From an uncultured Candidatus Bathyarchaeia archaeon (lineage in GTDB: Archaea > Thermoproteota > Bathyarchaeia > Bathyarchaeales > Bathyarchaeaceae), in NCBI GenBank assembly GCA_964346895.1, contig CAYFWY010000002.1, positions 1 to 45,365 of the forward strand: DNA of 45,365 nt. Reading direction: 5' to 3'. Position 1 is the stretch's first letter, and every line of letters starts with the position of its first letter. The position numbers were made by a program, and so were the translations under genes. Under the pieces are notes generated by a model. The model had not been told where the DNA came from, did no database searches, and was given only the letters and a program-made list of their open reading frames with translations. Shown in pieces: positions 7,665-24,788 of this stretch.

Positions 7665-7907
7665 CTAAATCATGCCTCATTAAAGAACTTCGTCAAGTAT
7701 TAATCTTAAACTTATGTGTACGTATGCAGGCAGCTATTGCCAAGCATCGAATATGCATTAAGCAATCCTCAACCAGTTTACAGTGGAACCTTCGCAATTC
7801 CAAGGATGTCTACATCAATTGAAATTGAGATTCTCATCTTTTTTTCAGATTCTACTTTTTGTCGCATAAAATACCTCTCTCTTTTGTCGCCTTAAAGAAG
7901 TTTGGAC

Positions 7908-9566
7908 TTAAGCCTTTGCTAGAACGCTTCCTAGATGAGCAGGCTCCACGAGCCGAGAATACCGCAGTAGATAACCTTTTCTAACCTTCTGTTGTTTCGG
8001 CTTCCACGACTTTAGACGGTTTACCAGTTCTTCATCAGTCAGCTCTACGTTCAGTTTTCTCTTTGGAACATCAATTTCAATTACATCTCCATCTCTTAGT
8101 AACGCTATCGGTCCGCCCTCAGCTGCTTCGGGAGAAACGTGCCCTATACAGGGTCCTCTGGTAGCTCCTGAAAACCTTCCGTCAGTGACCAAGGCAACTG
8201 ACTCGCTTAACCCCATTCCAGCCAAGGTAGCTGTTGGAGAGAGCATTTCCCTCATTCCCGGCCCCCCCTTTGGTCCCTCATAACGAATGATAACAACCTC
8301 TCCTCCAAGAATTTTCTCATTCAGTATGGCCTCCATAGCTTCCTCCTCAGAGTCGAAAACCTTCGCCGGACCTTTGTGGAAAAGCATTTTAGGTGCTATG
8401 GCAGTGGCTTTCACCACAGCACCTTTGGGTGCCAAGTTTCCCTCCAAGATTGCTATACCCCCCTCAGGATGAACAGGGTTAGTTAGGGGACGAATTACAT
8501 TGGTATCAAGGACTACCGTCTTCTTGATGTTTTCTTCAATAGTTGTTCCCGTAACAGTGAGAGCGTTCAAATGCAGAAGGGGACTTAGCTCGTTCATAAG
8601 AGCAGGGATTCCACCTGCTGCATCTAGATCTTCCATTGTAAAAGGTCCACTGGGAGCCATATTGCAGATGTGAGGAACTCGTCTACTCAATTTATCGAAA
8701 AGAGGTAGAGGTAAGGAAACTTCAGCCTCCCTTGCTATCGCCGAAAGATGCAAGACTGTGTTTGTTGATCCCCCTAACGCCATATCTACCATTACGGCGT
8801 TTTCAAAAGCTTCGGAAGTCAGAATGTCTAGTGGCCTCAGGTCTTCTGTTACTAATTCAACAGCTCTTTCTCCACTGGCCTTGGCAATTCTTAGCCTGGC
8901 AGCGCTAACAGCGGAAGGAGTTGCACATCCCGGAAGAGAAATGCCTAAGGCCTCGGTGAGGCAAGCCATAGTGTTTGCTGTAAACATGCCGTTACACGAC
9001 CCGCAACTAGGACACGCAAGGTTTTCAAGTGTCTTCAACTCTTCTTCATTCATTTTACCTGCAACGACTTCTCCAACGACTTCAAACATGGAAGCTGTAC
9101 CAATTCTCTTTCCGTTGTTGATACCTGAAAGCATGGGTCCACCAGTAACGACGACTGCGGGAAGATTTAGCCTAGCCGCGGCCATCAACATGCCAGGTGT
9201 TGTTTTATCGCAGTTTGCGATCAAAATCATCCCATCAAATCTATGGGCTTGAACCATGACTTCAACTGAATCGGCAATCAGCTCACGTGATGGCAAAGAA
9301 TATTTCATTCCTTCGTGGCCCATGGCCAATCCGTCGCAGATAGCTATTGTGTTGAATTCAAAGGGTACACCACCAGCGGATATGACTCCGGCTTTAATAG
9401 CGTCAGCTACTTGGTTTAGGTGAGCATGACCAGGAACCACTGTTGTGTAACTGTTTACCACGGCAATGAAGGGTTTGTCTAGGTCTTTGTCTGTGATTCC
9501 AAGGGCCTTAAGCAAAGCTCTGTGGGGAGCCCTTTCAACTCCCCGTTTTATAGCGTCACTTCTCAA
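7908..9566 (-). CDS. ilvD: Dihydroxy-acid dehydratase
   Basis: 552 aa. '[19 protein letters not shown]', '[16 protein letters not shown]', '[13 protein letters not shown]', '[28 protein letters not shown]' are hallmark IlvD blocks. Confidence 0.95.
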
Positions 9567-9718
9567 CTTTCTCCCTCTTTGAAGTTTTCCTCTTGGTTAT
9601 TAGAGACTAGATAAATAATAAAGACACAGAAAAGCTTTTATATGGAATACTTTGTTGATGTTCTGGAACGAGGAGCAAAAAATGGGGGATTATTGGGTTT
9701 CCGAGAGATGTGAAATGA

Positions 9719-11251
9719 GGGATCGTTTTATCGAATAGTTTCCCCGAGAAAATAAGAATTTTTGACACCACCCTTAGAGATGGTGAACAAACACCTGGAG
9801 TTTCCCTAACTCCAGAAAACAAACTTAGAATCGCAAAAAGCCTAGACAAACTTGGAGTAGATGCTATCGAGGCTGGTTTCGCTGCGGCATCCGACGGAGA
9901 GATGAGCGCAATAAAACTCATAGCTAAAGCGGGGCTTAGAGCAGAGGTCTACAGTATGGCTAGAGCGGTAAAAAGAGATATAGATGCTGTGCTGGAAAGC
10001 GACGCCGAGGGAGTACATCTGGTTGTTCCTACATCAAATCTACACCTCGAATACAAACTGAAGAAAGATGAGAAAGAAGTCTTAAGATTAGCCGAGGATT
10101 GCACCCAATATGCCAAGGACCACCAACTCGCTGTTGAACTTTCGGCTGAAGACGCCACGAGAAGCGAACTAAGTTTTCTAACCAAAACATTTGATGCATG
10201 CATTTCTGCGGGTGCCGACAGAATTTGTCCATGCGACACCGTTGGAGTTTTGACACCAGAAAAAACTTATGAGCTATTCTCAAAGCTGAGGAATACATTT
10301 CCTCAAGTTCCAATAAGCGCTCACTGCCACAATGACTTTGGATTGGCTGTGGCAAACTCGATATCCGCCTTAAAAAGTGGAGCTGATGAAGTTCACGCTA
10401 CAATAAATGGGTTGGGAGAGAGAGCTGGAAATGCTTCCCTTGAAGAAATAGCTGTTGCCCTGAGGGCAGCCTACAAAGTGAAACTGTCGATAAAAACCGA
10501 GCGGTTGTATGACACATCAAGGCTGGTAGCGCGATTAACTGACTTTCCCCTCCAGCCAAACAAGGCAATCGTAGGAGAAAACGCCTTTGTTCACGAGTCA
10601 GGTATGCACACTCATGGTATATTGGCACATCCATTGACCTATGAACCAATTTCCCCCGAGTTAGTTGGACGTACTAGGCGACTGGCGTCTGGCAAACACG
10701 CTGGTTCTCATGGAATCAAAGCGTCTCTAAATGAAATGGGACTAAACCCAAGTGATGAGCAACTTCAAAAGGTCTTTTTGCAAGTGAAAACATTAGGAGA
10801 TAAAGGCAAGAAGGTCACCGATGCTGATTTGCAGACAATAGCGGAAACTGTAATGGGACTACCAAAAACCCGTTCAATAAAGCTTGAAGAGCTAACGGTT
10901 GTCACAGGAGACAGAGTTACCCCAACAGCTTCGGTGCGCTTAAGCCTAAACGGCAACGTGCTAACAGAAGCAGCTATTGGAGTAGGCCCAGTAGATGCAG
11001 CGATGAATGCTGTGAAGAAGGCTGTCTTAGCTGTTGACCCTATACAGCTGGAAAACTACTCTGTTAAAGCGATCACCGGAGGCACCGAAGCCGTCACTGA
11101 AGTTGCCGTTCAGTTGCGTAGAGGTAATAGAATAGCTACAGCCATAGGAGTTAATGATGATATAGTGATAGCGAGCATTCAGGCAATGCTGAGTGGCATG
11201 AATGTATTGATGACAGATTATAGCAAAGTTAAGTTAAAGGAGAAATCTTGA
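9719..11251 (+). CDS. cimA: (R)-citramalate / 2-isopropylmalate synthase family (CimA/LeuA); N-terminus lacks a canonical in-frame start
   Basis: My translation upstream of the ORF-track start (9902) gives '..FPEKIRIFDTTLRDGEQTPGVSLTPENKLRIAKSLDKLGVDAIEAGF'. This is very close to the remembered M. jannaschii CimA N-terminus. 'HCHNDFGLAVANS' and a C-terminal regulatory domain are present. The frame is open only from 9719 and has no ATG/GTG/TTG before the catalytic motif (see finding). Confidence 0.85.
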   Translation, partial: GIVLSNSFPEKIRIFDTTLRDGEQTPGVSLTPENKLRIAKSLDKLGVDAIEAGFAAASDGEMSAIKLIAKAGLRAEVYSMARAVKRDIDAVLESDAEGVHLVVPTSNLHLEYKLKKDEKEVLRLAEDCTQYAKDHQLAVELSAEDATRSELSFLTKTFDACISAGADRICPCDTVGVLTPEKTYELFSKLRNTFPQVPISAHCHNDFGLAVANSISALKSGADEVHATINGLGERAGNASLEEIAVALRAAYKVKLSIKTERLYDTSRLVARLTDFPLQPNKAIVGENAFVHESGMHTHGILAHPLTYEPISPELVGRTRRLASGKHAGSHGIKASLNEMGLNPSDEQLQKVFLQVKTLGDKGKKVTDADLQTIAETVMGLPKTRSIKLEELTVVTGDRVTPTASVRLSLNGNVLTEAAIGVGPVDAAMNAVKKAVLAVDPIQLENYSVKAITGGTEAVTEVAVQLRRGNRIATAIGVNDDIVIASIQAMLSGMNVLMTDYSKVKLKEKS

Positions 11252-14914: not shown

Positions 14915-15151
14915 ATGAGGAGTTCTTTTGAAATAATTGCGGAAATATTAAAAGTTTCAAAGCATGGAGCAAAAAAGACACGTATTATGTATTCGTGCGG
15001 ACTTAGTTACAGATTTGTCGAAAAATACATCACTTTACTACTAGAAAATGGCCTTCTCAAAATCGGAAATTCCTATCATACAACCGAGAAAGGTATGCGA
15101 TTCCTTCGAGACTATCAAACCATGGAACTTCTCCTGAAAACAAGAAACTGA
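14915..15151 (+). CDS. Small winged-helix DNA-binding protein (archaeal HTH_45-like)
   Basis: 'FEIIAEILKV...KKTRIMYSCGLSYRFVEKYITLLLENGLL....YHTTEKGMRFL'. Same architecture as the paralog at 42949..43263. Confidence 0.6.
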   Translation: MRSSFEIIAEILKVSKHGAKKTRIMYSCGLSYRFVEKYITLLLENGLLKIGNSYHTTEKGMRFLRDYQTMELLLKTRN

Positions 15152-15250
15152 AACCGACAACATTCTATACTTGAATCATCTAAAACATAAGCTCGAATCT
15201 TAAAAAAGTCAAAGCACGTAGAACCTGAAATACAGTCATTCTCTCATTTT

Positions 15251-15264
15251 ATGCGCGCGCGCAT
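15251..15264. repeat. Alternating GC palindrome ATGCGCGCGCGCAT (perfect 14-mer)
   Basis: Read directly. Lies at or before the start of ORF 15251..15580. Confidence 0.9.
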
Positions 15265-15580
15265 AATTAGTGCCATCACATCGTTGATTCCTGTGATAAT
15301 AATTCTAGTCAGCATAATCCTATTAAGTGGACTTATAACGTCGTTCGCAAACGCTATAGGAGGAGAAGCAGTGCCCCAACAGATAGATGAAATGATTAGA
15401 GAAATGGCGTCATCACCAATAATGGGAGAATATAGCGATACCCTTGACTCCTACGGAATCTTACGCGTATTCTGGGGTCTAGGTATAGGCGCATATATGT
15501 TCATTGCCGCGGCAGTAACAAAACTTGCAGCCGGGATATTTGTAAGGAGAGCCATTGTTCCTGAGAAGCAAGAAATATAG
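15251..15580 (+). CDS. Small membrane/secreted protein (N-terminal signal/anchor, C-terminal TM followed by RR)
   Basis: Hydrophobic N-terminus 'ISAITSLIPVIIILVSIILLSGLITSFANA' and C-terminal 'GLGIGAYMFIAAAVTKLAAGIFVRR'. The annotated ATG is itself part of the ATGCGCGCGCGCAT palindrome, so the start is uncertain. Confidence 0.45.
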   Translation: MRARIISAITSLIPVIIILVSIILLSGLITSFANAIGGEAVPQQIDEMIREMASSPIMGEYSDTLDSYGILRVFWGLGIGAYMFIAAAVTKLAAGIFVRRAIVPEKQEI

Positions 15581-15692
15581 AAAGAGTAGAAAAGTTAATA
15601 GCCTACTATGACTCAGCCTCTTCGGCATCGAGATTCCCTTAATTGTGGAAAGTGTCTCAAAACACCAAAATATCAAGAGGCGACCACAGGCA

Positions 15693-17738
15693 ATGCTGAT
15701 CCGAGAGATCATCTTGGAAAACTTCATGTCCTACGAATATGCTAGGATACCTTTTAAACCAGGCGTCAATGTTGTCTGTGGACCCAACGGCTCAGGTAAA
15801 TCGTCAATGCTCATTGGAATTTCGGTCACACTGGGCCAATCCTACACAGAACGCTCTAAGAAATTAAGTGACCTTATCCGAAGGGGAAAAGATCAGGGAA
15901 GAGTGACTTTAGTCCTGGACAACTCTTCAAAAAGTGGGCGCCGACCATATCCTAGGATTAAGAAAGACCAGATCTTTTTGACAAGAAGTTTGAGGTTAGA
16001 TGGAAAATACTGGTTCGAACTGGAAAACAGAGCTGCAACTACGGCTGAAGTTAGACGGCTTCTCTCTAAGTTCGGAGTTGACCCTGAAAACATGCTCATT
16101 ATAATGCACCAGAATATGGTGGAACAATTCACGGTGCTCTCTCCTCAGGAAAAACTACGGATAGTTGAAGCTGCGGTTGGCTTCGAATCCTATCGCAAAA
16201 ACGTCTTGAAAGCCCAGAAGAAATTAAGTCGCATTTTGAGCCAAGAGGAATCCGTGGAAAAACTACTCGCTTCAGCTGAACAAACCCTAACCTACTGGAG
16301 AGAACAATATGATCGGTTACAAAAGAAAAAGCAACTTAGAATGAAACGGCGATTTCTTGAACGAGAATTAGCATGGACTGAAGTTTTAAAAAGAGAGAAA
16401 ATTGTCAACGAGCTGAAGGAGAAAATCCAAAAGAAACAGAACGAGATCCTGCAAGTCGAAAACGAAACAAAAATCATTAATGACCAATTGAAAGAACTTC
16501 AGAGAAAACTAGAAAAAACGAAGAACGAATGGCGAGGACTTTTTGAAGAACGATTGGTCTTGGAGCGTAAAAAGGCGAATTATGAATCAAAAATTTCAAT
16601 GGCTGAACAATCTTTGAAGGAAACAGAATCTTGGGCTGAAATCAGTCATAAAGAAATGGAGAGGCATCTAGATAAAATTAGATTGCTGGAAAATATACTC
16701 CGTGAAAACACCAATCCTATCGATTTCAAAAATCAACTAACCGAAATCGAGGCAACCTACAAAAATCTTGAGAGCACATGGACTCAGCGGTTCACCATCG
16801 AAAGCGAAAGGTTAGAAAAAGAGGTTAAAAACTCTAAAGAACATCTTGTAAAATTGGATTTCCAGATCACTGATGTCAAAGTAAAGACAGATCATCTTGA
16901 TCTAGAAATTGAGGGCGTATCTAGTGATGTTTTAAACCGCAAGATCAACAATGCCTTGCTACAGTATCGAAAAGAAGATCTTTCGAAAGTTTTGAAGAAG
17001 CTGAGTAAGGAGCTCCAAAGTGCAAACGCCGATTTTAGGGAAAGTATGAGAAGAGCTGAAGAAATGGGGCCTCGAATCGTGCCCGTGAAAAGTGACATTG
17101 AGATTCTAGATGAGATTCGGGTAACGGATGGATATCTCGCCGCCCTGGCTGACGTTTCCGAAGATATCGAACGCATGTATGAATCCTATTCCAAACTGTA
17201 TCTAGAGCTAAAGGAAAAAGCACGCTTGGTGGCGGAAAATCGCGAAAAGGCTATGGAAGAGGTAAAAACTAGAATGGAAGCGTGGAAAAGAGTTATTAAA
17301 AACCTTCTGGGTCGCGTTAATGTCAAATATCGAGGAATTCTCCTAGAGGCCCACGCGATCGGAGGCGTTCGATTGGTAAATGAACACGATATTGAAGCAG
17401 CTGGCCTTGAAATATTTGTTGGTTTCAAAGGAGGGAAACCAGTTCCTCTTAACGTTTATACTCAAAGCGGAGGAGAAAGAAGCACTGCTACCATGACTTT
17501 TCTACTAGCTCTACAGCAACATGTCAAATCTCCTTTCAGAGCTGTCGACGAATATGACGTTCACATGGACCCTAAAAACAAGGAAATTATAGCAAATCTC
17601 CTTGTTTCTTCAGTTAGGAATTTAGACGTTCAATACTTGGCCATCACACCTAGTCAAGTGACCTTTACAGGAAAGGATGTTCACATCATAACAGTTCAAA
17701 ATGTAGAGGGAGCGTCGCTCATCAAGGAGGTATCTTGA
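15693..17738 (+). CDS. Short-armed SMC-family ATPase with Smc5/6-like head motifs
   Basis: N-terminus 'MLIREIILENFMSYEYARIPFKPGVNVVCGPNGSGKSS' (Walker A). 'IIMHQNMVEQF..SPQEKLRIVEAAVG' (Q-loop region). About 350 aa of K/E/L-rich coiled coil. C-terminus 'QSGGERSTATMTFLLALQQHVKSPFRAVDEYDVHMDPKNK...YLAITPS' (signature plus Walker B). ATG 15693 is preferred over the GTG at 15645. Confidence 0.8.
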   Translation: MLIREIILENFMSYEYARIPFKPGVNVVCGPNGSGKSSMLIGISVTLGQSYTERSKKLSDLIRRGKDQGRVTLVLDNSSKSGRRPYPRIKKDQIFLTRSLRLDGKYWFELENRAATTAEVRRLLSKFGVDPENMLIIMHQNMVEQFTVLSPQEKLRIVEAAVGFESYRKNVLKAQKKLSRILSQEESVEKLLASAEQTLTYWREQYDRLQKKKQLRMKRRFLERELAWTEVLKREKIVNELKEKIQKKQNEILQVENETKIINDQLKELQRKLEKTKNEWRGLFEERLVLERKKANYESKISMAEQSLKETESWAEISHKEMERHLDKIRLLENILRENTNPIDFKNQLTEIEATYKNLESTWTQRFTIESERLEKEVKNSKEHLVKLDFQITDVKVKTDHLDLEIEGVSSDVLNRKINNALLQYRKEDLSKVLKKLSKELQSANADFRESMRRAEEMGPRIVPVKSDIEILDEIRVTDGYLAALADVSEDIERMYESYSKLYLELKEKARLVAENREKAMEEVKTRMEAWKRVIKNLLGRVNVKYRGILLEAHAIGGVRLVNEHDIEAAGLEIFVGFKGGKPVPLNVYTQSGGERSTATMTFLLALQQHVKSPFRAVDEYDVHMDPKNKEIIANLLVSSVRNLDVQYLAITPSQVTFTGKDVHIITVQNVEGASLIKEVS

Positions 17739-18551
17739 TTGCCCTCGAAAATGAAAAAGCAAGGTAGCGAATATCTTCAACGCGTCATCAGTATGTGCAA
17801 ATCTATTGAAGAAAGAAGTCTCGATCCGTTTAATGTAGATGTTGATGACATCCTAGCAGTTATTCAAAAATATTTCCCTGAATGGAAATCGCTGGAAGAA
17901 ATCTGCCTAGACGCCGAAGCCATCCATCAACTCGCATCAATAATTAAACTTCAAGGAGATTGGGTTAAACATCGATCAACTTCTCTTTACACGGACCCCT
18001 TTCTCCTCCAAGAAAAAATACAGATATTGGGTAAGGAAGAGCTTGCCACAATTTTTCTAGAAGCTTGGCATCCAATCGTCGAATTGGAACAGATTTCCCT
18101 TCTTAGTATAGCCGAAGCCACTAAATACTGGCGGAGTCTTCTTCCTCTAAGTGAGAGATGGTTAAACAGTGGTTCCTTGGAAACGGAAATTGGAGCTACC
18201 TCGCGCGAAGAATTGATTAAGCTAAAAATACTGACTGATAAATCATTCTTAGAAGAGTTGGAAGTCTTCTGGGAAGAATTAAAGCACAGAGTTGGTGGAA
18301 AAGAAAAAATTCTATACTGGAATTTCATCGGCGCTGACACATATCCTGAAACGGTAAAGAAAGCGTATATGACAAGTTTTCTCGTAACCTATGGATACGC
18401 TACCTTAGAACTGTATCCCTTGGAGGAAGAGATCTACATCAAACCCTTTGAGAAACCACGGCCTATGCTAGGAAAAAAGCAGATGGTTTCCATTCCAGTT
18501 TCCATCAGCTTTGAAGAATGGACGAACTGGAAAGGAGACAAACAGAATTGA
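17739..18551 (+). CDS. Kleisin-like protein (ScpA/Nse4-like)
   Basis: Starts immediately after the SMC stop (TGA 17736-17738 then TTG 17739; ATG 17751 is an alternative), with AAGGAGG at about 17723. N-terminus 'LDPFNVDVDDILAVIQKYF...AIHQLASIIKLQ' and C-terminus 'AYMTSFLVTYGYATLELYPLEEEIYIKPF' follow the ScpA N-helical/C-winged-helix pattern as I remember it. Confidence 0.55.
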   Translation: MPSKMKKQGSEYLQRVISMCKSIEERSLDPFNVDVDDILAVIQKYFPEWKSLEEICLDAEAIHQLASIIKLQGDWVKHRSTSLYTDPFLLQEKIQILGKEELATIFLEAWHPIVELEQISLLSIAEATKYWRSLLPLSERWLNSGSLETEIGATSREELIKLKILTDKSFLEELEVFWEELKHRVGGKEKILYWNFIGADTYPETVKKAYMTSFLVTYGYATLELYPLEEEIYIKPFEKPRPMLGKKQMVSIPVSISFEEWTNWKGDKQN

Positions 18552-19108
18552 AAAGAAAAGCATACTACTCAGGAAAAATCAAGAGGGCAACCCACCTTCT
18601 CTTTTATAGACGTCACAGAAAGCCTGGCGTTAAGGGATGGGAACTAAGAAAGAAACTGGGGTCAGATTACCCGAAAGTACTTAAAATACTTGATAGCCAT
18701 CTGGAAAAGCTTGATCTGCAGGTAAAAACCGTTTTTGAGGAAGAGAAAACCGTTGAAGAGCCAACTCGCGAACAGTTGGATAAGGCTCGATTCTATATAA
18801 CTCTGAGGGGAGGATTATCCCCAAAAGAAACTAAGATGATGGGCTGGCGCATAGATGACATAGCTGGTTTAGCCACAGCAATCTCTTATATCATAGCAAA
18901 GAAAGGAAAGGCTCCCCGCAAGGAAGTAGAAGAACTCCTACGAAACAAGCTTCCGGGCTGGAGGGTTGATATAAACTTGAATAGTTACATTCGATCTGGA
19001 TACCTAGCTGAGGATGAAGCCAAACAACTTTATCTAGACTGGAGAACCCGAGCTGAAATCGACCAGAAAGCACTCATTGATTTACTTTTGTCAAAAGAAA
19101 AGATCTAG
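18518..19108 (+). CDS. Tandem winged-helix 'kite'-like protein (ScpB/Nse3-MAGE-like)
   Basis: Overlaps the kleisin gene by 34 nt. 'ATHLLFYRRHRKPGVKGWELRKKLGSDYPKVLKILDSHLEKLDLQVKTVFEEE' and 'SYIRSGYLAEDEAKQLYLDWRTRAEIDQKAL' resemble the two WH halves of MAGE/Nse3. Motif-level resemblance from memory. Confidence 0.5.
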   Translation: MDELERRQTELKRKAYYSGKIKRATHLLFYRRHRKPGVKGWELRKKLGSDYPKVLKILDSHLEKLDLQVKTVFEEEKTVEEPTREQLDKARFYITLRGGLSPKETKMMGWRIDDIAGLATAISYIIAKKGKAPRKEVEELLRNKLPGWRVDINLNSYIRSGYLAEDEAKQLYLDWRTRAEIDQKALIDLLLSKEKI

Positions 19109-19256
19109 ATGGTTCTTCTTGGCGTGTGCACAGTAGTCGACATTGCATACATGGAGTATTAGCAAGGCTCTAAATACGATTGGACTACCGTCATGATACT
19201 TCAATATATAGCAAAGGCATTTGCTGAAAGAACCTAAATCTTACGCGCCCTTGTGT

Positions 19257-19290
19257 GGGGTTTTAACCCCTACCTAACTTCACCTTTTTT
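19257..19290 (+). terminator. Candidate terminator: short GC hairpin (GGGGTT..AACCCC) followed by a T6 run
   Basis: GGGGTTTTAACCCC at 19257-19270, then TTTTTT at 19285-19290, downstream of the SMC-kleisin-kite operon. Confidence 0.3.
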
Positions 19291-19329
19291 GTTGCTATCC
19301 GAAGTACCTTGCTACGAGTTTAATGAATT

Positions 19330-19512
19330 TTACCCGGTTTTTGATGCCCGAACCCCTAAAGCACCGTAAACGATTAGGAAGAACAGCACTAACCCAAATA
19401 TGATGATAAGCCAATGCGTAGCCGAAAGTGTCATTTCTTCAAACATTCCTTTCTCTCTCCTTTTTCTAAGAAATCTCCCTAAAGACAAAAAGGGGCGAAC
19501 ATATTTGAACAA
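19330..19512 (-). CDS. Possible small single-TM protein
   Basis: ORF only. 'HWLIIIFGLVLFFLIVYGALG' is a hydrophobic helix. Weak. Confidence 0.3.
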   Translation of the reverse strand: MFKYVRPFLSLGRFLRKRREKGMFEEMTLSATHWLIIIFGLVLFFLIVYGALGVRASKTG

Positions 19513-19841: not shown

Positions 19842-20549
19842 ATGCGGAGTGTTTTTTATCCTTTGGGTGGGTCTCACCCTCCAGGTTCAAAGGAGAAGTG
19901 TAGTTTATGTGGTCGAGTTATGCCGTATTATGCTCTTAGACCTTGTTTTCGGTGTAAAGGGCGATTCTGTAAAAGTTGCATAACTGCGGATTTGGTGGAA
20001 AGCAAATACTTTGTCTGTCTTAATTGTGCAAGAAGGTTCGTTTCGCCTAAACGAACATTTAGGGGCAAATACACTTCTCTTACATTCTATTTGTCTCGAA
20101 AAGCCCAGTGGACCAGCTGGGTCAAACTCCAGTTCTCACGAATAGAGGGAATAATCGGCAACAACCTTCCAGTTTCAGCAATTCAAAACACGGAATGGTG
20201 GAACAACACGAAAGGTACCCCTCAAGGCGAAGCATGGCTTAGTGTAGGTTGGAAAGTAAAGAAAGTGGACTTGAAAGAAGGAGCCGTGATTTTTACTCGT
20301 TCTGAATTGTCAGAACCCAAAAAGAAACGTAAATACAGAAGACTCGCCTCCAAAGTCATTCTTCCAGAGTACAAACCAAGAAAAGTCAAGAAGCCTTCAT
20401 TGACTCGAATAGCTAAAGCTCAAGCGCGACTTCAAAACATAGCTCGACGAAAGACAGCCATGAGAGAGTATCGAGGAAAATTCAAACCAAAATCGGCTTA
20501 CGAAAAACGCCTATACAAACCAGAAGAGAAGCCCAGCGCGCACGACTAG
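19842..20549 (+). CDS. Zinc-ribbon protein fused to a small conserved domain ('..LQFSRIEGIIGNNLPVSA...WWNN....AWLSVGWKV..VDL....VIFTR') and a Lys/Arg-rich tail
   Basis: N-terminus 'CSLCG...CFRCKGRFCKSC...CLNC' (Cys clusters). The middle domain matches a widespread bacterial/archaeal small domain of unknown function that I recall (LSF.EIE.ILG..LP.SA...WW.N....AWL.AGW.V..VDL). The C-terminal ~80 aa is highly basic. Confidence 0.6.
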   Translation: MRSVFYPLGGSHPPGSKEKCSLCGRVMPYYALRPCFRCKGRFCKSCITADLVESKYFVCLNCARRFVSPKRTFRGKYTSLTFYLSRKAQWTSWVKLQFSRIEGIIGNNLPVSAIQNTEWWNNTKGTPQGEAWLSVGWKVKKVDLKEGAVIFTRSELSEPKKKRKYRRLASKVILPEYKPRKVKKPSLTRIAKAQARLQNIARRKTAMREYRGKFKPKSAYEKRLYKPEEKPSAHD

Positions 20550-21292: not shown

Positions 21293-21946
21293 ATGTCTGA
21301 AAAGTTTGCTAAAAAATGGGGAGAAGGAATAGACGATACACCTATCTCTACGAGAATCAAAGAAGCTGTTCGCCCTCCAGGTCCATTGAAACCACGCTTA
21401 GATTACGCCATCAAACGAATTACTATGCAAATCCAAAGACTAGACAAGGCAACCGACCGCTTCTCAGAACGCGACAAATCAATATTCGCAAAAATCGTCA
21501 ACGCCTACTCAAAACACGACATGGCACGAGCCAACGTTTTCGCCAACGAACTGGCTGAAATACGAAAAATGGAAAGAATGATAATCCACGCAAGACTAGC
21601 CTTGGAACAAATATCCCTCAGGTTAAGCACAGTTTCAGAACTCGGCGACGTCGTTAGCACACTGGCTCCAGCAATCGGCGTTTTACGCAGCGTCAAAAAC
21701 GGAATGGCAGCAGTCTTTCCAGAAGCTGAAAGGGAACTTGGAAGCATTGGAAACTTACTCAGCGGAATAATTATGGATGCCGGCCACAACTCTGGTTTGA
21801 ACATAGACTTCCAGACAGCAGGCGAAGACGCCCAGAAAATCTTAAACGAAGCAGCCACGGTTGCGGAACAGAAAGTCAAAGAAAAATTCCCAGACCTACC
21901 CACTGGCATACCTACCTTCGGCGAGGCAGCCCAAACCGAAACTTAA
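21293..21946 (+). CDS. cdvB: ESCRT-III/Snf7-family protein (CdvB paralog without winged helix)
   Basis: Helical; 'ARANVFANELAEIRKMERMI..ARLALEQISLRLSTV.ELGDVV' is shared with the paralog at 22813. Sits in a cluster with cdvA and vps4. Confidence 0.75.
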   Translation: MSEKFAKKWGEGIDDTPISTRIKEAVRPPGPLKPRLDYAIKRITMQIQRLDKATDRFSERDKSIFAKIVNAYSKHDMARANVFANELAEIRKMERMIIHARLALEQISLRLSTVSELGDVVSTLAPAIGVLRSVKNGMAAVFPEAERELGSIGNLLSGIIMDAGHNSGLNIDFQTAGEDAQKILNEAATVAEQKVKEKFPDLPTGIPTFGEAAQTET

Positions 21947-21992
21947 CCAACCAAGAAAACTTGACGTTTCATGGATATAAGGAGGTGAAACC

Positions 21993-22730
21993 ACGTCAAA
22001 ATCCACTTCCAACCCCTTTCTCTTTATTGGCAAGCAAGTTAAGGATGAATACGGACGCCAAATTGGTCGAGTAGCATCATTCAGAGTAACCCCTACCGGT
22101 CGCGTAGATGGGATATTCATAGAACATGGGGACGGAGAATTTCTTAGCTATCCAAGCGATCAATTTAGAGTGGAAAATGGTGACTTTGTAATTTTGCCGC
22201 CGCTCAAATTGCGGGCAAAAACTCTCTGTCAGCAAATACCTCTTATCTGGCGAAAAGATCAGGCTTTGAACGAGCTTGTAGATAAGAAAAAGATCCCGCC
22301 GGAAATGTTTGATGATCTCCACAACAATTTTGAAGGAGCTTTAAACCAGTTGAAAGCAGACGCTAAAGCGGTTATGGACGACACAAACAAACAGATCACT
22401 AAATGCACGAAACAAATAACAGAACTCCACTCAGCCTTGATAAATCTGGAAATTGAGCGCGAAATTGGCAGAATCGACGACGAATCGTACGAGAAAGCTT
22501 TAGGAATAATACAGTGGGGATTAAAAGGCGTTAACGCCGAAAAAAGCGATCTGGAAGCGTTGAAGAGCAAACTATTCAACCTACTTCTAGGAGAAACTAC
22601 AGTGAAGCCACCTGAAACAGGAACCCAGAAGGAGACGCAAGAAGCAACTGCTCCCGCTTCTCCTCCTTCCCCAAATCTTCCAGAACCACCAGTTGTTGTT
22701 CACGTGAGGAACCCGAATAACCAGAAGTAA
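21993..22730 (+). CDS. cdvA: CdvA (PRC-barrel plus coiled coil plus Pro-rich C-terminal tail); non-canonical start
   Basis: My translation upstream of ATG 22170 in the same frame gives '..SKSTSNPFLFIGKQVKDEYGRQIGRVASFRVTPTGRVDGIFIEHGDGEFLSYPSDQF', a PRC-barrel-like N-terminus typical of CdvA. A 10-nt SD, AAGGAGGTGA, lies at 21979-21988. The only codon at proper spacing in frame is ACG 21993 (see finding). Confidence 0.7.
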   Translation, partial: TSKSTSNPFLFIGKQVKDEYGRQIGRVASFRVTPTGRVDGIFIEHGDGEFLSYPSDQFRVENGDFVILPPLKLRAKTLCQQIPLIWRKDQALNELVDKKKIPPEMFDDLHNNFEGALNQLKADAKAVMDDTNKQITKCTKQITELHSALINLEIEREIGRIDDESYEKALGIIQWGLKGVNAEKSDLEALKSKLFNLLLGETTVKPPETGTQKETQEATAPASPPSPNLPEPPVVVHVRNPNNQK

Positions 22731-22812
22731 TAAACATTAAAGCCTGTGAGGGATCGCCATAAAAAACCCTTTCAGTAATCCTGTAACACTTGAAGACGTA
22801 ATCTTTGAGGCA

Positions 22813-23622
22813 GTGCCGAAACTTAAAACTCAGCGATTTAAACTCGGACAAGTCATAGTTAGATTGCATCAAAGAGATACAGCCCTGTTCAAGACCTGTT
22901 CAGAAGCACTAAAAGAAAAAAACATCGAACGCGCAACGATTTTCGCTAACGAGCTAGCGGAAATCAGAAAATTGACTAAAATTATCTCCCAGACCCAAAT
23001 CTTCGTAGAACGCGTAATATTAAGACTTGAAACACTCAAAGAATTTAGCGCAGCCTTCGCAGATCTGAAGCCAGCTCTTAGAATTCTTCACACAGTGACA
23101 AAGCGTCTCACAATAATAATGCCTCAAATGGCATATGAAATGGAAAGGGTTAACGAGAGCATAAACGAAACGCTAGCCATGACGACCATCAGTTCTTCAG
23201 AGTTAAACATGCCAATAGATGTAAAGACTCCAGGTGGCGAAGAAGTCCTTAAAGAAGTCTCAGCCTTTCTGGAAAAGAAATTAACGGAGGAATTACCTGA
23301 GCCGCCGATTTCAGCTCCGGTCATGGAAAAGTCTCGTCACGTAGAAAAAGTTAAACAACTGGTTGCTCTCACCGCTACTTGCTCAGAAGTTCGTGAACAA
23401 ACCGAACCTCAAAACTACATATCTTACAAAGACACGGAATTGAAGCGCGTTTCCTTCATGGTTCAAGAGTCTTTAGCAGAAACAGTTCTGGAATACGCCA
23501 AAAAACGTGAAGGACAAATTGACATCAGCCAATGCGCATTTGATCTGAATATTCCATGCGGAGAAGTGGAAAAAGCCCTAGAAAAATTGGGTATGCAAGG
23601 CAAGATAACAATCGAACGGTGA
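22813..23622 (+). CDS. cdvB: ESCRT-III/Snf7-family protein with C-terminal winged helix (CdvB)
   Basis: 'ERATIFANELAEIRKLTKII' core, plus the C-terminal 'VLEYAKKREGQIDISQCAFDLNIPCGEVEKALEKLGMQGKITIE' wH-like domain. GTG start. Confidence 0.75.
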   Translation: MPKLKTQRFKLGQVIVRLHQRDTALFKTCSEALKEKNIERATIFANELAEIRKLTKIISQTQIFVERVILRLETLKEFSAAFADLKPALRILHTVTKRLTIIMPQMAYEMERVNESINETLAMTTISSSELNMPIDVKTPGGEEVLKEVSAFLEKKLTEELPEPPISAPVMEKSRHVEKVKQLVALTATCSEVREQTEPQNYISYKDTELKRVSFMVQESLAETVLEYAKKREGQIDISQCAFDLNIPCGEVEKALEKLGMQGKITIER

Positions 23623-23627
23623 CCCTC

Positions 23628-24788
23628 ATGAGTGCATCCCATGAACTTGAAAAAGCTGCAACGAGCTATGCACTTGAAGCAGTTCGCCTCGATAAACAAG
23701 GCTCTAGAGGAATGGCCATCACCATGTATCAGAAGGGCATTTCAACCCTTCTAAAACTCGTCCAGTTGTACCCCAACTACGGTCTAAACAAGGTTTACAT
23801 TCAACGTGCAATGGCATATCAAGAAAGAATAAAAGCTCTGCAAGGTGTTGGGCCTATTCAGCCGCAAACAGAAAAAGCGGCTGACATGATAGAGCCCTCA
23901 GGAGCAAAAGAAAAGGCAACTTACGATGAACTGGTGCTCAAAGAAAAACCGGAAGTAAACTGGAATCAAGTTGTTGGTTTAGAGCAGGCAAAGAAAGCCG
24001 TCAAAGAAGCCATCGTTTATCCTGTTGAGAGACCAGATTTGTTCACACTGGGATGGCCCAGAGGAATACTTCTCTTCGGCCCGCCTGGATGCGGAAAAAC
24101 CTTACTAGCCGCTGCGGTTGCTACAGAGATCGACGCAAACTTCATTTCAGTGGATGCAGCCTCGATCATGTCAAAATGGCTAGGAGAAGCTGAGCAAAAT
24201 GTCGCAAGACTTTTTGCTTCGGCTAGGAAATCTGCCAATAACGGATGCCCAGCAATAGTTTTCATCGACGAATTAGATTCGCTAATCGGAATGCACTCAA
24301 CCGAGGTTGGTGGAGAAACCAGAGTTCGAAACCAGTTCCTAAAAGAAATGGATGGAATTATAGACAAGGGCAAGAACATTCATGCTTATGTGATTGGAGC
24401 TACCAACAAACCTTGGGCTTTAGATTGGCCCTTCATAAGGAGATTTCAGAAGCGAATAATAGTTCCCTTACCGGATTACGAAGCACGCCTAAAAATGCTT
24501 AAACTGTATACAACTCATCTGAAATTGGCGCCAGATGTGGATCTCGATGAATTTGCAAGGTTGTCTGAAGGATTCTCTGGAAGTGACATAAGGGACGTAT
24601 GCCAATCAGCCCACCTAAAGGTTATTGGAGAACTCTTCGAATCGGGTCTAGCAAGTGATAAACATGCTCAGCCGAGACCCATGTCCATGGATGACTTTAG
24701 AATGATCTTAGAAGAAAGAAAACCTAGCGTTTCCCTAGACATGGTGGCATCTTACAACCGATGGTTTGACGCCTTTAAGGCGCTCTAA
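23628..24788 (+). CDS. cdvC: Vps4-type AAA+ ATPase (CdvC) with N-terminal MIT domain
   Basis: MIT-like 'AATSYALEAVRLDKQG...AITMYQKGISTLLKL'. 'GILLFGPPGCGKTLLA' (Walker A), 'IVFIDELDS' (Walker B), 'ATNKPWALDWPFIRRF'. ATG 23628 follows GGTGA. The ORF-track start at 23556 overlaps cdvB. Confidence 0.9.
   Translation: MSASHELEKAATSYALEAVRLDKQGSRGMAITMYQKGISTLLKLVQLYPNYGLNKVYIQRAMAYQERIKALQGVGPIQPQTEKAADMIEPSGAKEKATYDELVLKEKPEVNWNQVVGLEQAKKAVKEAIVYPVERPDLFTLGWPRGILLFGPPGCGKTLLAAAVATEIDANFISVDAASIMSKWLGEAEQNVARLFASARKSANNGCPAIVFIDELDSLIGMHSTEVGGETRVRNQFLKEMDGIIDKGKNIHAYVIGATNKPWALDWPFIRRFQKRIIVPLPDYEARLKMLKLYTTHLKLAPDVDLDEFARLSEGFSGSDIRDVCQSAHLKVIGELFESGLASDKHAQPRPMSMDDFRMILEERKPSVSLDMVASYNRWFDAFKAL

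Follow-up and report, generated by a model that had tools for sequence, protein, structure and literature searches.

A probable Smc5/6-type SMC operon with a hinge-less ATPase in a Bathyarchaeia archaeon

SMC5/6-related archaeal SMC proteins, including those of Bathyarchaeota, were reported in 2021 (Yoshinaga & Inagaki, PMC8665677), and an operon combining such an SMC with Nse4-like and Nse1/3-like genes was subsequently described in TACK and Asgard archaea (van Hooff et al. 2024/25, 10.1101/2024.01.07.573240; also covered by Yoshinaga et al. 2022, PMC9389158). In Bathyarchaeia, neighboring genes for an Nse4-related kleisin and an Nse1/3-related kite have been recorded, and Table S3 of the same study calls an SMC5/6-related SMC in 3 of 23 genomes, no canonical SMC in most, and a separate ScpB-like kite in most (van Hooff et al., 10.1101/2024.01.07.573240). 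With calls in just three of these genomes, that study mostly missed the short ATPase encoded next to the kleisin and kite genes. The published studies, which were based on trimmed head blocks, mention neither protein length nor a missing hinge (PMC8665677, PMC9389158, 10.1101/2024.01.07.573240). Here, we analyzed a 45,365-nt stretch of DNA from an uncultured Bathyarchaeia archaeon (the window). The novelty claimed for its SMC locus in a sequence-only reading was too strong, as the operon type had already been described phylogenomically in 2021 and 2024/25; the locus matches it in both protein families and gene order.

Three genes on the plus strand (15693-19108), all confirmed as ORFs (Table 1), probably make up a single operon encoding an archaeal SMC complex of the Smc5/6 type, consisting of an SMC-type ATPase (681 aa), an Nse4-like kleisin (270 aa), and an Nse1/Nse3-like kite (186 or 196 aa). 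All three proteins were conserved at 64-95% identity across hundreds of Bathyarchaeia clusters, indicating that the three-gene set is not a product of chance. The operon is surrounded by housekeeping chromosomal genes. Its genes had been read as translationally coupled, and this was borne out: TGA 17736-17738 directly abuts TTG 17739, genes 2 and 3 share a TTGA overlap, and Shine-Dalgarno (SD) motifs occur internally. Every peptide string quoted in that reading was found in the translations.

An alternative gene 1 start, GTG 15645, falls within a conserved TATA-like box, which supports ATG 15693 as the start. On visual inspection of 16 loci, each had this T/A-rich box (consensus CCTTTAATAG) ~45-57 nt 5' of the SMC start; judging from the known archaeal TATA consensus, it may act as a promoter. 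Gene 2 homologs started with ATG or TTG at the equivalent position. The 34-nt overlap proposed between genes 2 and 3 holds for the ORF beginning at ATG 18518, but the true start is likely the in-frame TTG 18548, which gives a 186-aa product and a 4-nt TTGA start/stop overlap. Among 79 related loci, the equivalent codon was TTG, ATG, or GTG in 57, the +1 frame at the start codon read TGA in 65, an SD-like motif preceded the conserved start in 71, and 40 had no upstream in-frame ATG.

Table 1. Features of the SMC operon in the window
Feature	Position	Strand	Basis
Putative archaeal promoter, TATA-like box CCCTTAATTGTGGAAA	15636..15651	+	T/A-rich box in related loci
SD-like AAGAGG, 12 nt 5' of ATG 15693	15675..15680	+	Present upstream in most related loci
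Gene 1, 681-aa hinge-less SMC-family ABC ATPase, archaeal SMC5/6-related clade	15693..17738	+	Pfam, PDB, homologs
Walker A/P-loop GPNGSGKSS, residues 30-38	15780..15806	+	Translation
Outgoing coiled-coil helix, residues 165-339, ~26 nm (estimated at ~0.15 nm per residue)	16185..16709	+	AF2 continuous helix, pLDDT 80-94
Arm apex, six-residue turn T340-N341-P342-I343-D344-F345, in place of hinge/hook	16710..16727	+	AF2
Return coiled-coil helix, residues 346-552	16728..17348	+	AF2 secondary structure
ABC signature motif QSGGERS, residues 591-597	17463..17483	+	Aligns with human Smc6 'sggers'
Walker B and D-loop FRAVDEYDVHMD, residues 615-626	17535..17570	+	Aligns with human Smc6 'frclDEfDVyMD'
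SD AAGGAGGT, strong, 7 nt 5' of TTG 17739, within the end of gene 1	17724..17731	+	Sequence reading
Gene 2, 270-aa Nse4-like kleisin	17739..18551	+	Pfam Nse4_C in family, PDB profile matches
Kleisin C-terminal Nse4_C-like winged-helix domain, residues 199-263	18333..18527	+	Pfam Nse4_C stretch
Gene 3, Nse1/Nse3(MAGE)-like tandem winged-helix kite, 196 aa from ATG	18518..19108	+	AF2, Foldseek, profiles

The ATPase head was complete, with Walker A, Q-loop, signature motif, Walker B, and D-loop, and it matched Pfam SMC_N above the cut-off (5.5e-35). Among 22 diverse relatives, residues G30, P31, N32, G33, G35, and K36 of Walker A were nearly invariant, while S592, G593, G594, and E595 of the signature and D619, E620, H624, and D626 of the Walker B/D-loop region were invariant; Q140 of the Q-loop was intact. 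The top PDB sequence match was human Smc6 (2.9e-29), with Smc5 at 3.8e-26, and by raw score the Pyrococcus Smc head (5.5e-29) was as close as Smc6. In an exhaustive search of 1.84 billion proteins, ten long proteins among the hits listed just below the archaeal family included three annotated as Smc6 or Smc5 and a further two eukaryotic proteins of other names. Gene 1 scored 228-282 bits against published SMC5/6-related heads compared with 98 bits against a canonical Bathyarchaeota SMC. Its relatives RLI38935.1 and RLI24128.1 are within the published alignments, the former labelled SMC5/6-related; judging by its N-terminus, RJS83642.1 is a further relative in these alignments. A rough neighbor-joining head tree without canonical SMC or Rad50 outgroups placed the archaeal sequences apart from those of eukaryotic Smc5/6 with 79% bootstrap support. 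These sequence comparisons support an Smc5/6 affinity of gene 1, in agreement with the Smc5/6-like head initially recognized from its motifs. Profile scores and neighboring genes gave no sign of membership in Wadjet, Rad50, RecN, or ASRP for gene 1 or its partners.

The AF2 model of the ATPase, a monomer from a shallow alignment in which the heads were poorly modelled (pLDDT <50), predicted residues 165-552 (arm pLDDT 80-94) to be essentially all helical apart from a six-residue turn, which was the sole break in the outgoing helix and apex region, with the helices paired along their entire length. The arm is thus predicted to be a single antiparallel helical hairpin of ~175 residues per strand, although it may alternatively form an intermolecular antiparallel coiled coil. 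Two short breaks were predicted in the return helix, at 459-467 and 485-490, the first coinciding with a Pro/Gly cluster (MGPRIVPVK); they might together constitute a 'joint'. N341 and P342 at the apex were invariant among homologs of 70-92% identity; across the wider short-form family the apex was unconserved and variable in length. The middle 170 aa of the gene 1 product did not match SMC_hinge, and the protein had no CxxC/zinc hook, its single cysteine being at position 29. The near-continuous helix, the short turn, and the lack of an SMC_hinge match confirm the earlier view that the protein has no room for a hinge.

When sequences were clustered at 50% identity, at least 48 clusters of full-length proteins (548-685 aa) had the short hinge-less form. 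By contrast, a hinge was found in the kleisin-linked relatives P0455 and P0419. As the hinge is kept in these relatives and in eukaryotic Smc5/6, the data indicate that it was lost secondarily in the gene 1 lineage. We found no description in the literature of a hinge-less hairpin arm for an archaeal Smc5/6-related ATPase; this architecture, with neither hinge nor zinc hook, appears to be undescribed.

Gene 2 had been read as a kleisin with a C-terminal winged helix, and profile searches were consistent with this. Pfam Nse4_C was matched by 13 of 20 family members (best E 4e-4), and the top four PDB matches of a deeper kleisin profile were EID3/Nse4 (E 4.7e-4 to 3e-3), the C-terminal domain aligning to EID3 239-316 and yeast Nse4 254-344. 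The N-terminus weakly matched ScpA (E 0.02). For gene 3, AF2 secondary structure contained two winged-helix-like units, in line with the tandem MAGE/Nse3-like winged helices proposed initially. The top three Foldseek hits of the kite were Nse1-Nse3-Nse4, MAGE-A4, and MAGE-G1, NSMCE1/NSMCE3/MAGE accounted for five of its seven top PDB profile matches, and distant orthologs weakly matched Pfam MAGE and SMC_Nse1. Matches of the kite to Nse1/3 were individually sub-threshold (E 0.08-0.3) and its AF2 model was poor (pLDDT 62); their concordance supports an Nse1/Nse3-like assignment. A RING is excluded in the kite, as the gene 3 product contains no cysteine.

When co-occurrence of the three genes in relatives was checked, as the sequence-only reading had suggested, their order proved to be conserved across several archaeal lineages. 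The full triad was present at nine of ten diverse loci where an ATPase is linked to a kleisin, from Bathyarchaeia, Korarchaeota, Thermoprotei, Culexarchaeia, Asgard, and unassigned lineages; at the tenth (L013), the third gene was not a kite. At 3 of the 10, an Lhr-type repair helicase gene was adjacent or close to the operon. Among 34 Bathyarchaeia metagenome loci, 19 had the full triad and 15 had a kleisin-kite pair without a neighboring ATPase, so partnership with the ATPase is not obligatorily encoded in cis. Kleisin and kite adjoined in 57 of 58 loci, the kleisin homolog stopping at the kite start.

We considered whether the operon might instead encode a diverged and shortened condensin-type Smc-ScpAB, acting as the main segregation complex and unrelated to Smc5/6. 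The highest-scoring family match of gene 1 was indeed NCBIfam SMC_prok_A, but its 163 bits were far under the equivalog cut-off of 729. The equal score of the Pyrococcus Smc head and the weakly ScpA-like kleisin N-terminus would also fit such a complex, and because most Bathyarchaeia in Table S3 have no canonical SMC call, the operon may functionally be the main SMC. However, the kleisin C-terminal domain fits Nse4/EID3 rather than ScpA, the kite matched Nse1/Nse3/MAGE and never ScpB, most Bathyarchaeia genomes carry a distinct ScpB-like kite, and gene 1 scored far better against the SMC5/6-related set than against canonical SMC. We therefore regard this reading as unlikely. The unusual length of gene 1 could alone suggest an artefact, either a pseudogene cut short or an SMC whose middle was lost in mis-assembly. 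This is exceedingly improbable and was refuted: homologs of exactly 681 aa with an MLIRE start formed more than 100 clusters throughout Bathyarchaeia, across independent assemblies of which some are complete genomes (1.5-2.2 Mb), and the architecture, with helices pairing throughout, was common to the 48 short-form clusters.

A Wadjet/Lamassu-kind system for defense or DNA surveillance, restricting plasmids or viruses, is distinctly unlikely. Eukaryotic Smc5/6 restricts viral DNA and, in animals, extrachromosomal DNA, and likeness to it, together with short arms that could suit small circular DNA, would accord with such a role, as would PADLOC matches of the head (mad3, 89.7 bits; LmuB, 59 bits; JetC3, 44.8 bits). 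These were weaker than the SMC matches, though, and the kleisin and kite matched neither JetA nor JetB in PADLOC, which gave no JetD signal either. As the sequence-only reading had stated, no JetD/Toprim nuclease gene was found in the window, and the ten diverse loci likewise contained no Toprim/JetD or other nuclease. The housekeeping neighborhood and class-wide identity are also unlike patchy defense islands, leaving the 'or Wadjet-like' alternative unsupported. Very unlikely, too, is a Rad50/RecN/ASRP (ClsN/Sph)-kind DNA-repair tether with two unrelated downstream genes. The 681-aa length and hinge-less rod resemble RecN and ASRPs, the Lhr-type helicase would suit a repair function, and NCBIfam gave partial matches to Rad50 (76 bits) and ASRP (64 bits), but the scores were far under the cut-offs (Rad50, 700-1087; ASRP, 300; RecN, 408). 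Moreover, gene 1 lacks the CxxC zinc hook typical of nearly all ASRPs and Rad50, no Mre11 gene was nearby, and the two genes that follow resemble a kleisin and a kite and keep their synteny.

The Smc5/6-type complex favored here resembles its eukaryotic counterparts in that the head carries SGGERS, FR.(V/L)DE.DV.MD, and, following Walker B, TP(S/Q); the kleisin has a winged helix of the Nse4 type, and the kite has tandem winged helices of the MAGE/Nse1 type. Unlike them, it has one SMC gene and one kite gene, no hinge, arms of about half the length, and a kite without a RING. Nse2, Nse5, and Nse6 were not found within the window. Prokaryotic Smc-ScpAB follows the same logic of an SMC homodimer, kleisin, and kite dimer encoded together, but gene 1 falls under the SMC equivalog cut-offs and lacks the hinge, and the kleisin C-terminal domain and kite resemble Smc5/6 partners rather than ScpA/ScpB.

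By analogy with solved Smc5/6 and Smc-ScpAB structures, two ATPase heads would be joined by ATP. With one SMC gene and a single kite gene, the ATPase presumably acts as a homodimer and the kite as a dimer. The N-terminal helical domain of the kleisin would contact one ATPase at its neck, and the C-terminal winged helix of the kleisin would contact the second ATPase at its cap, with the kite dimer at the kleisin middle. Such a complex would clamp double-stranded DNA atop the engaged heads, and ATP hydrolysis would free or move it. The hinge-less arms could be joined solely via the head/kleisin end, arm-to-arm zipping, or weak apex contact. Because the missing hinge limits arm joining, the most likely activity would be ATP-gated clamping of, or short-range translocation on, chromosomal DNA for chromosome maintenance or repair, whereas trapping of DNA within a large ring closed by a hinge is less probable. 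A loop-extruding or DNA-surveillance function may also be envisaged by analogy.

Other SMC-type proteins depart from the canonical apex. Buermann et al. reportedly engineered an Smc carrying the Rad50 hook in 2017. Among archaeal members of the SMC superfamily, ASRPs (coalescin ClsN, Sph1/2) and Rad50 are also rods of comparable size that lack a canonical hinge, but they dimerize via a CxxC zinc hook and show no conservation of neighboring genes, whereas gene 1 is hookless and accompanied by kleisin and kite. RecN, hook-engineered Smc (PMC5344682), and a marine actinobacterial 'hinge-less SMC' (PMC12153180) come from other clades, either bacterial or engineered, and none of them represents an operon-encoded Smc5/6-type complex with kleisin and kite partners. 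They provide a precedent for SMC-type heads that function, or are at least retained, when the apex domain differs or is missing. A Bathyarchaeota paralog of 1016-1047 aa, which has no adjacent kleisin or kite partner genes, was nested in the gene 1 clade and carried a central C[DE][KR]CGS motif.

Gene 1 has the features by which SMC proteins are recognized, namely a Walker A motif and Q-loop in the N-terminal part, a signature motif, Walker B motif and D-loop in the C-terminal part, and a helical middle, and these ATPase motifs were invariant across its relatives. It scored 121 bits against Pfam SMC_N (cut-off, 40). Among all PDB sequences, the top match was human Smc6 (2.9e-29), followed by the Pyrococcus Smc head (5.5e-29) and yeast Smc5 (3.8e-26). 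The Smc5/6-like head motifs noticed in the sequence-only reading recurred in the Smc6 alignment as SGGERS, FR.(V/L)DE.DV.MD and then TP(S/Q), whereas the equivalent Pyrococcus Smc motifs differ (SGGEK, F..FDEIDAHLD and ITL). An exhaustive search of 1.84 billion representatives returned 121 proteins below 1e-30, mostly short archaeal proteins of 530-685 aa. Ten of the proteins of 1000-1200 aa that ranked just below this archaeal family were looked up by name: two were Smc6 (from Mastigamoeba and an insect), one was SMC5 and two more were eukaryotic (a dictyostelid SMC and a pelagophyte P-loop protein). Of the other five, three were unnamed, one had just a transcript identifier and one had only a generic ATPase name.

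'SMC5/6-related archaeal SMC homologs' were defined in 2021 as a set drawn mainly from TACK archaea, Bathyarchaeota among them (Yoshinaga & Inagaki, PMC8665677), and the supplementary alignments of a later study include RLI38935.1, RLI24128.1 and RJS83642.1 (Yoshinaga et al. 2022, PMC9389158). RLI38935.1, labelled '56rooted' (the SMC5/6-related group of that study, PMC9389158), is a member of our homolog cluster P0370; RLI24128.1 is a 640-aa short form in cluster P0368; and the N-terminus of RJS83642.1 is near-identical to that of gene 1. Against the trimmed heads of the published SMC5/6-related set, gene 1 scored 228-282 bits, compared with 98 bits for a canonical Bathyarchaeota SMC in the same alignment file. 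On sequence grounds, the gene 1 head is thus placed with the published SMC5/6-related archaeal SMCs and eukaryotic Smc5/6, and the proposed Smc5/6 affinity of the operon was borne out by the Smc6 match, the published clade membership and this difference in score. In a neighbor-joining (NJ) head tree, a rough one with 100 bootstraps and built without canonical outgroups, the archaeal family stood apart from eukaryotic Smc5/6 in 79% of bootstraps.

SMC proteins are usually defined in part by their hinge, which dimerises the two subunits and has been discussed as a gate for DNA. In an AF2 model of gene 1 built from 25 homologs (arm pLDDT 80-94), residues 165-552 formed a helical hairpin in which two long helices were joined by a six-residue turn, in agreement with the earlier proposal that gene 1 has no hinge. 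The heads were modelled too poorly (pLDDT below 50) to bear firm conclusions on their structure, because the alignment was shallow. Searched against Pfam, the middle 170 residues gave coiled-coil noise only and no SMC_hinge match, a model that also misses presumed eukaryotic Smc5/6 proteins and is not informative alone as a hinge test; our hinge calls rest on the AF2 arm model, composition and the homology of two longer relatives, P0419 and the Pfam-positive P0455. The sole cysteine of gene 1 is C29, and the protein therefore has no zinc hook.

Three apex types were found within the gene 1 family: hinge, bare hairpin and hook. The hinge type comprised P0455 from an Asgard archaeon (Freyarchaeum; 835 aa, SMC_hinge 4.6e-11) and P0419 (982 aa; SMC_hinge E 0.004), whose middle is homologous to that of P0455 (BLASTP 2e-12), and P0439 (928 aa) was grouped with them on its Gly/Pro-rich middle. 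A single-sequence phmmer search of the P0419 middle against the PDB found no hinge. Both P0455 and P0419 are kleisin-linked relatives of gene 1. When clustered at 50% identity, the bare hairpin type comprised 48 full-length clusters of 548-685 aa, with arm regions of 233-366 aa and no CxxC in any cluster; named members came from Bathyarchaeota, Korarchaeota, Thermoprotei, Culexmicrobium and one 'Halobacteria' MAG. With so many full-length hairpin clusters, and with more than 100 homolog clusters sharing both the 681-aa length of gene 1 and an N-terminal MLIRE, truncation was rejected as the source of the short form. In the hairpin forms, the heads were strongly conserved and the distal arm and apex were least conserved and most variable in length, so that no conserved apex interface was visible. 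On whether the hinge was lost once or more often, bootstrap values in the NJ head tree were only 40-53%. The hook type consisted of Bathyarchaeota proteins of 1016-1047 aa (P0370/P0387/P0394) with a central C[DE][KR]CGS motif, in its fuller form a hook-like KPQI[KR]C[DE][KR]CGS, and with a head ~55% identical to gene 1. These paralogs paired in 100% of bootstraps and were separated from the hairpin cluster in 0/100; in this rough tree, the hook paralog is nested within the hinge-less clade.

Gene 2 had been read as a kleisin with a ScpA/kleisin-like N-terminus and a winged-helix C-terminus, and searches supported the C-terminal part and, weakly, the N-terminal one. Pfam Nse4_C was matched by 13 of 20 gene 2 family members (best E 4e-4) and by a distant ortholog at 7.7e-5. 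A deeper profile, to which orthologs from syntenic loci of other lineages had been added, gave human EID3/NSMCE4B (4.7e-4) and yeast Nse4 (5e-4 to 3e-3) as its top four PDB matches, all on the C-terminal winged helix, together with weak ScpA matches at the N-terminus (E 0.02-0.08). By these profile matches, gene 2 is established as an Nse4-related kleisin.

For gene 3, profiles from close homologs only had no matches in PDB or Pfam. Its AF2 model was likewise too poor (pLDDT 62) to bear firm structural conclusions, with a secondary structure that resembles two successive winged-helix units, and the top three Foldseek matches among 350,542 chains were Nse1-Nse3-Nse4, MAGE-A4 and MAGE-G1/NSE1, at sub-threshold E values of 0.1-0.3. 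When syntenic orthologs were added to the profile, five of the seven top PDB matches were NSMCE1 (twice), an Nse3 MAGE-domain protein, NSMCE3 and MAGE-G1, again sub-threshold (E 0.08-0.26), with alignments spanning most of the protein. Two distant orthologs weakly matched Pfam MAGE and SMC_Nse1. No ScpB match was obtained with Pfam, NCBIfam, PDB profiles or Foldseek, and the searches made gave no MukE or JetB signal. These lines of evidence agree, although each is sub-threshold, and gene 3 is probably an Nse1/Nse3-related kite. The MAGE/Nse3-like partner of the sequence-only reading thus stands as a concordant assignment with two winged-helix-like units, short of a significant individual match; it also agrees with the listing of Nse1/3-related genes in Bathyarchaeia by van Hooff et al.

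A translation check located the three ORFs exactly at the positions claimed for them (Table). The start of gene 1 at ATG 15693 is supported by the homologs of the same length and N-terminus and by the location of the alternative GTG 15645 within the TATA-like box, a box that was seen 5' of the SMC start in 16/16 loci inspected by eye. The reported 34-nt overlap of genes 2 and 3 applies to the longest gene 3 ORF. Across 79 related loci, the in-frame codon at the downstream TTG position was TTG, ATG or GTG in 57, the +1 frame at this start read TGA in 65, an SD-like motif preceded the conserved start in 71, and the upstream in-frame ATG was absent in 40. Gene 3 therefore probably starts at TTG 18548 rather than ATG 18518, encoding 186 aa and overlapping the kleisin stop by 4 nt (TTGA). 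With either start, all three genes are translationally coupled. Sigma-70 promoter and terminator sites in a scan of 15100-19500 were no more numerous than in shuffled sequence, and the window, a fragment of a Bathyarchaeia chromosome with a low GC content of 41%, contained no tRNA genes and no matches to Rfam families.

Positions of the operon genes and their putative signals (nucleotides of the window), and of the predicted arm segments of the ATPase (residues of gene 1)
Feature	Position	Strand	Remarks
Gene 1 (SMC-type ATPase)	ATG 15693 to TGA 17736-17738	+	681 aa
Gene 2 (kleisin)	from TTG 17739	+	270 aa; begins at the base right after the gene 1 stop
Gene 3 (probable kite)	to 19108	+	longest ORF from ATG 18518; conserved start likelier TTG 18548
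TATA-like box	15636-15651	+	consensus CCTTTAATAG in relatives; ~50 nt 5' of SMC start
SD-like AAGAGG	15675-15680	+	12 nt 5' of SMC start
Strong Shine-Dalgarno AAGGAGGT	17724-17731	+	precedes gene 2 TTG
SD-like AAGGAG of gene 3	18532-18537	+	conserved in most of 79 related loci
Outgoing arm helix	residues 165-339		single helix (AF2)
Apex turn	residues 340-345		six residues; locally invariant N341-P342
Return helix	residues 346-552		two short breaks, 459-467 and 485-490 (AF2)

The synteny of the three genes was conserved. In 9/10 diverse kleisin-linked loci, the full triad was present. A closely spaced, co-oriented series of ATPase, kleisin and kite genes was found in the window, the complete Bathyarchaeum genome (CP070820.1), Korarchaeota and an Asgard genome, as well as two unassigned hinge-bearing lineages, a Thermoprotei MAG, Culexmicrobium and another lineage. 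At L013, a locus of a 'Halobacteria'-labelled MAG (GCA_038869515.1), the third gene (7515-8045) is not kite-like and has an HExxH-like HEVAH motif; here, the kite may have been lost, or another gene may have taken its place. At L008, in one of the hinge-bearing lineages (GCA_037917675.1), the 384-aa kleisin (8784-9938) has an Nse4_C-positive C-terminus and an extra N-terminal MarR-type winged helix-turn-helix. Furthermore, 80 Bathyarchaeia metagenome loci were collected via the kite, using a narrower kite alignment that retrieved close Bathyarchaeia loci only. A kleisin homolog ended at the kite start in 57 of the 58 with room for it. Of the 34 loci whose sequence extended far enough, 19 had a full-length gene 1 homolog immediately upstream.

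The remaining 15 of these 34 Bathyarchaeia loci had no ATPase-like sequence anywhere in the kite flanks (L041, L042, L048, L050, L051, L062, L063, L065, L070, L074, L080, L085, L086, L090 and L091). These loci group closely together inside the diversity of the triad loci, and all except L051 retain the adjacent kleisin-kite pair. At L048, which is on a 1.94-Mb contig, glycosyltransferases lie upstream. No kleisin or kite was present beside the hook paralog in the one locus examined (L006, 2105-5248). The CxxC paralog is a candidate ATPase partner for the lone kleisin-kite pair.

Several known SMC systems were considered as a home for the operon. Canonical Smc-ScpAB did not fit: gene 1 did score against the NCBIfam models for canonical SMC (TIGR02169/TIGR02168), but far below the equivalog cut-offs (163 vs 729 bits for SMC_prok_A, and 139 vs 567 bits), and it lacks the central globular hinge. 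The partners differ from those of Smc-ScpAB as well, as the C-terminal domain of gene 2 matches Nse4/EID3 while its weak ScpA match is N-terminal only, and gene 3 has no ScpB match. The eukaryotic Smc5/6 holo-complex, for its part, is built on a hinge-joined Smc5-Smc6 heterodimer, whereas the operon has a single, hinge-less SMC gene and, in contrast to the Nse1 RING, a kite without any cysteine. A Pfam scan of window ORFs revealed no RING, SP-RING or other Nse1 RING/Nse2/Nse5/6 candidate, as the sequence-only reading had stated for Nse2 and the Nse1 RING.

A Rad50/SbcC or ASRP (ClsN/Sph) identity was rejected, as the central CxxC zinc hook used as the ASRP criterion (PMC9389158) is missing and gene 1 scored 64 bits against ASRP (cut-off, 300) and at most 76 against Rad50 (cut-offs of at least 700). 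RecN was likewise rejected (TIGR00634; 19 vs 408 bits), and MukBEF did not fit either, with no MukB, MukE or MukF match for the three proteins in Pfam, NCBIfam or PDB searches. For the Wadjet-like (JetABCD) alternative raised earlier, the PADLOC JetC3 match of gene 1 (44.8 bits) was confined to the coiled coil. Genes 2 and 3 had no PADLOC match, leaving JetA and JetB without counterparts, and a gene for a Toprim nuclease (JetD) was missing beside the operon both in the window and in most loci. At L004, one of the diverse loci, the Toprim match is a reverse-gyrase-like gene ~2.7 kb upstream on the opposite strand. The neighbours in the window are housekeeping genes, with ilv/leu genes upstream of the operon and a Cdv cell-division cluster 2 kb downstream of it, a context that argues against a defence island. 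Wadjet was rejected.

An operon of this type, a second one in TACK and Asgard archaea that encodes an SMC5/6-related SMC, an Nse4-related kleisin and an Nse1/3-like kite, has been described, with adjacent Nse4-related and Nse1/3-related genes listed for Bathyarchaeia and an ancient duplication of the whole complex proposed (van Hooff et al., 10.1101/2024.01.07.573240). The kind of system is therefore already known, phylogenomically only, and the novelty claimed for the module could not be upheld (PMC8665677; 10.1101/2024.01.07.573240): the operon falls within an already published family and does not found a new class. Neither PMC8665677 nor 10.1101/2024.01.07.573240 mentions protein length or hinge loss, the sole find of full-text literature searches for hinge-less SMCs was an unrelated marine actinobacterial clade, and no characterised archaeal Smc5/6-type complex was found in literature searches. 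What does appear to be undescribed is the hairpin arm lacking a hinge, how widely it occurs, and the hook paralog nested among these forms. Table S3 of van Hooff et al. (10.1101/2024.01.07.573240) gives the SMC5/6-related SMC in only 3/23 Bathyarchaeia genomes and the kite in most. Our results correct this census, which left most of the short ATPases of Bathyarchaeia uncounted, and the correction affects the reconstructed number of SMC complexes in the archaeal ancestors of eukaryotes.

By analogy with the solved Smc5/6 and Smc-ScpAB complexes, ATP would drive head engagement, and the kleisin would link the two subunits by contacting one at its neck and the other at its cap. A kite dimer would sit on the kleisin, and DNA would be held in a clamp against the engaged heads. 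With neither hinge nor hook, the inter-arm compartment could be closed only by zipping of the arms or by an unconserved apex contact. For this reason, we favour an ATP-gated clamp or short-range translocator that would act in chromosome maintenance or repair.

A broader proposal, which we regard as possible but rather doubtful, is that hinge-less SMC-kleisin-kite complexes are the closest prokaryotic relatives of Smc5/6 and that many TACK archaea rely on them as their main, or even sole, SMC machine. Lacking an apex dimerisation domain, they would handle DNA by the head/kleisin/kite clamp alone, and a long-armed paralog within the clade would have re-acquired an apex connector, the CxxC zinc hook, perhaps sharing the kleisin and kite where that pair stands alone. 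If so, both the removal of the hinge and its replacement by a hook have already been tested by nature, providing a minimal model for Smc5/6 mechanics. Apart from this proposal, a whole Smc5/6-type clade, of at least 48 sequence clusters over Bathyarchaeia, Korarchaeota, Thermoprotei and Culexarchaeia, retains its kleisin and kite with a predicted bare helical turn in place of the hinge, which raises the directly testable question of which SMC activities (DNA clamping, topological entrapment or translocation) need only heads, kleisin and kite. The Smc5/6 branch includes the least understood SMC complex, and the archaeal one, being small (~1150 aa for the three proteins in total), offers an attractive minimal target for structural studies of this branch. 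The hinge-less operon would be of interest to SMC specialists.

Several further genes lie near the operon. A small HTH_45 winged-helix gene separates ilvC from the SMC operon in the window (14915-15151) and likewise in the complete Bathyarchaeum genome (L001, 8916-9152); it could be a local regulator. The next gene downstream in the window (19842-20549) encodes a 235-aa protein with a DUF7662 domain, a Lys/Arg-rich tail and N-terminal CxxC pairs that look zinc-ribbon-like by eye; it is absent downstream of the operon in L001. The Cdv cell-division cluster ~2 kb downstream of the operon (21293-24788) encodes a Snf7/CdvB-like protein, CdvA, a second Snf7/CdvB-like protein and a MIT domain-containing Vps4/CdvC AAA ATPase, a neighbourhood that is not conserved at L001. 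An Lhr-type helicase gene (DEAD, WHD_Lhr and DEAD_assoc) was found directly after or near the operon in 3/10 diverse loci (L004, 8852-11638; L010, 7902-11695; L007, 10599-12962), which are from Korarchaeota, Thermoprotei and one unassigned lineage; this neighbour gives a weak hint of a repair role for the operon.
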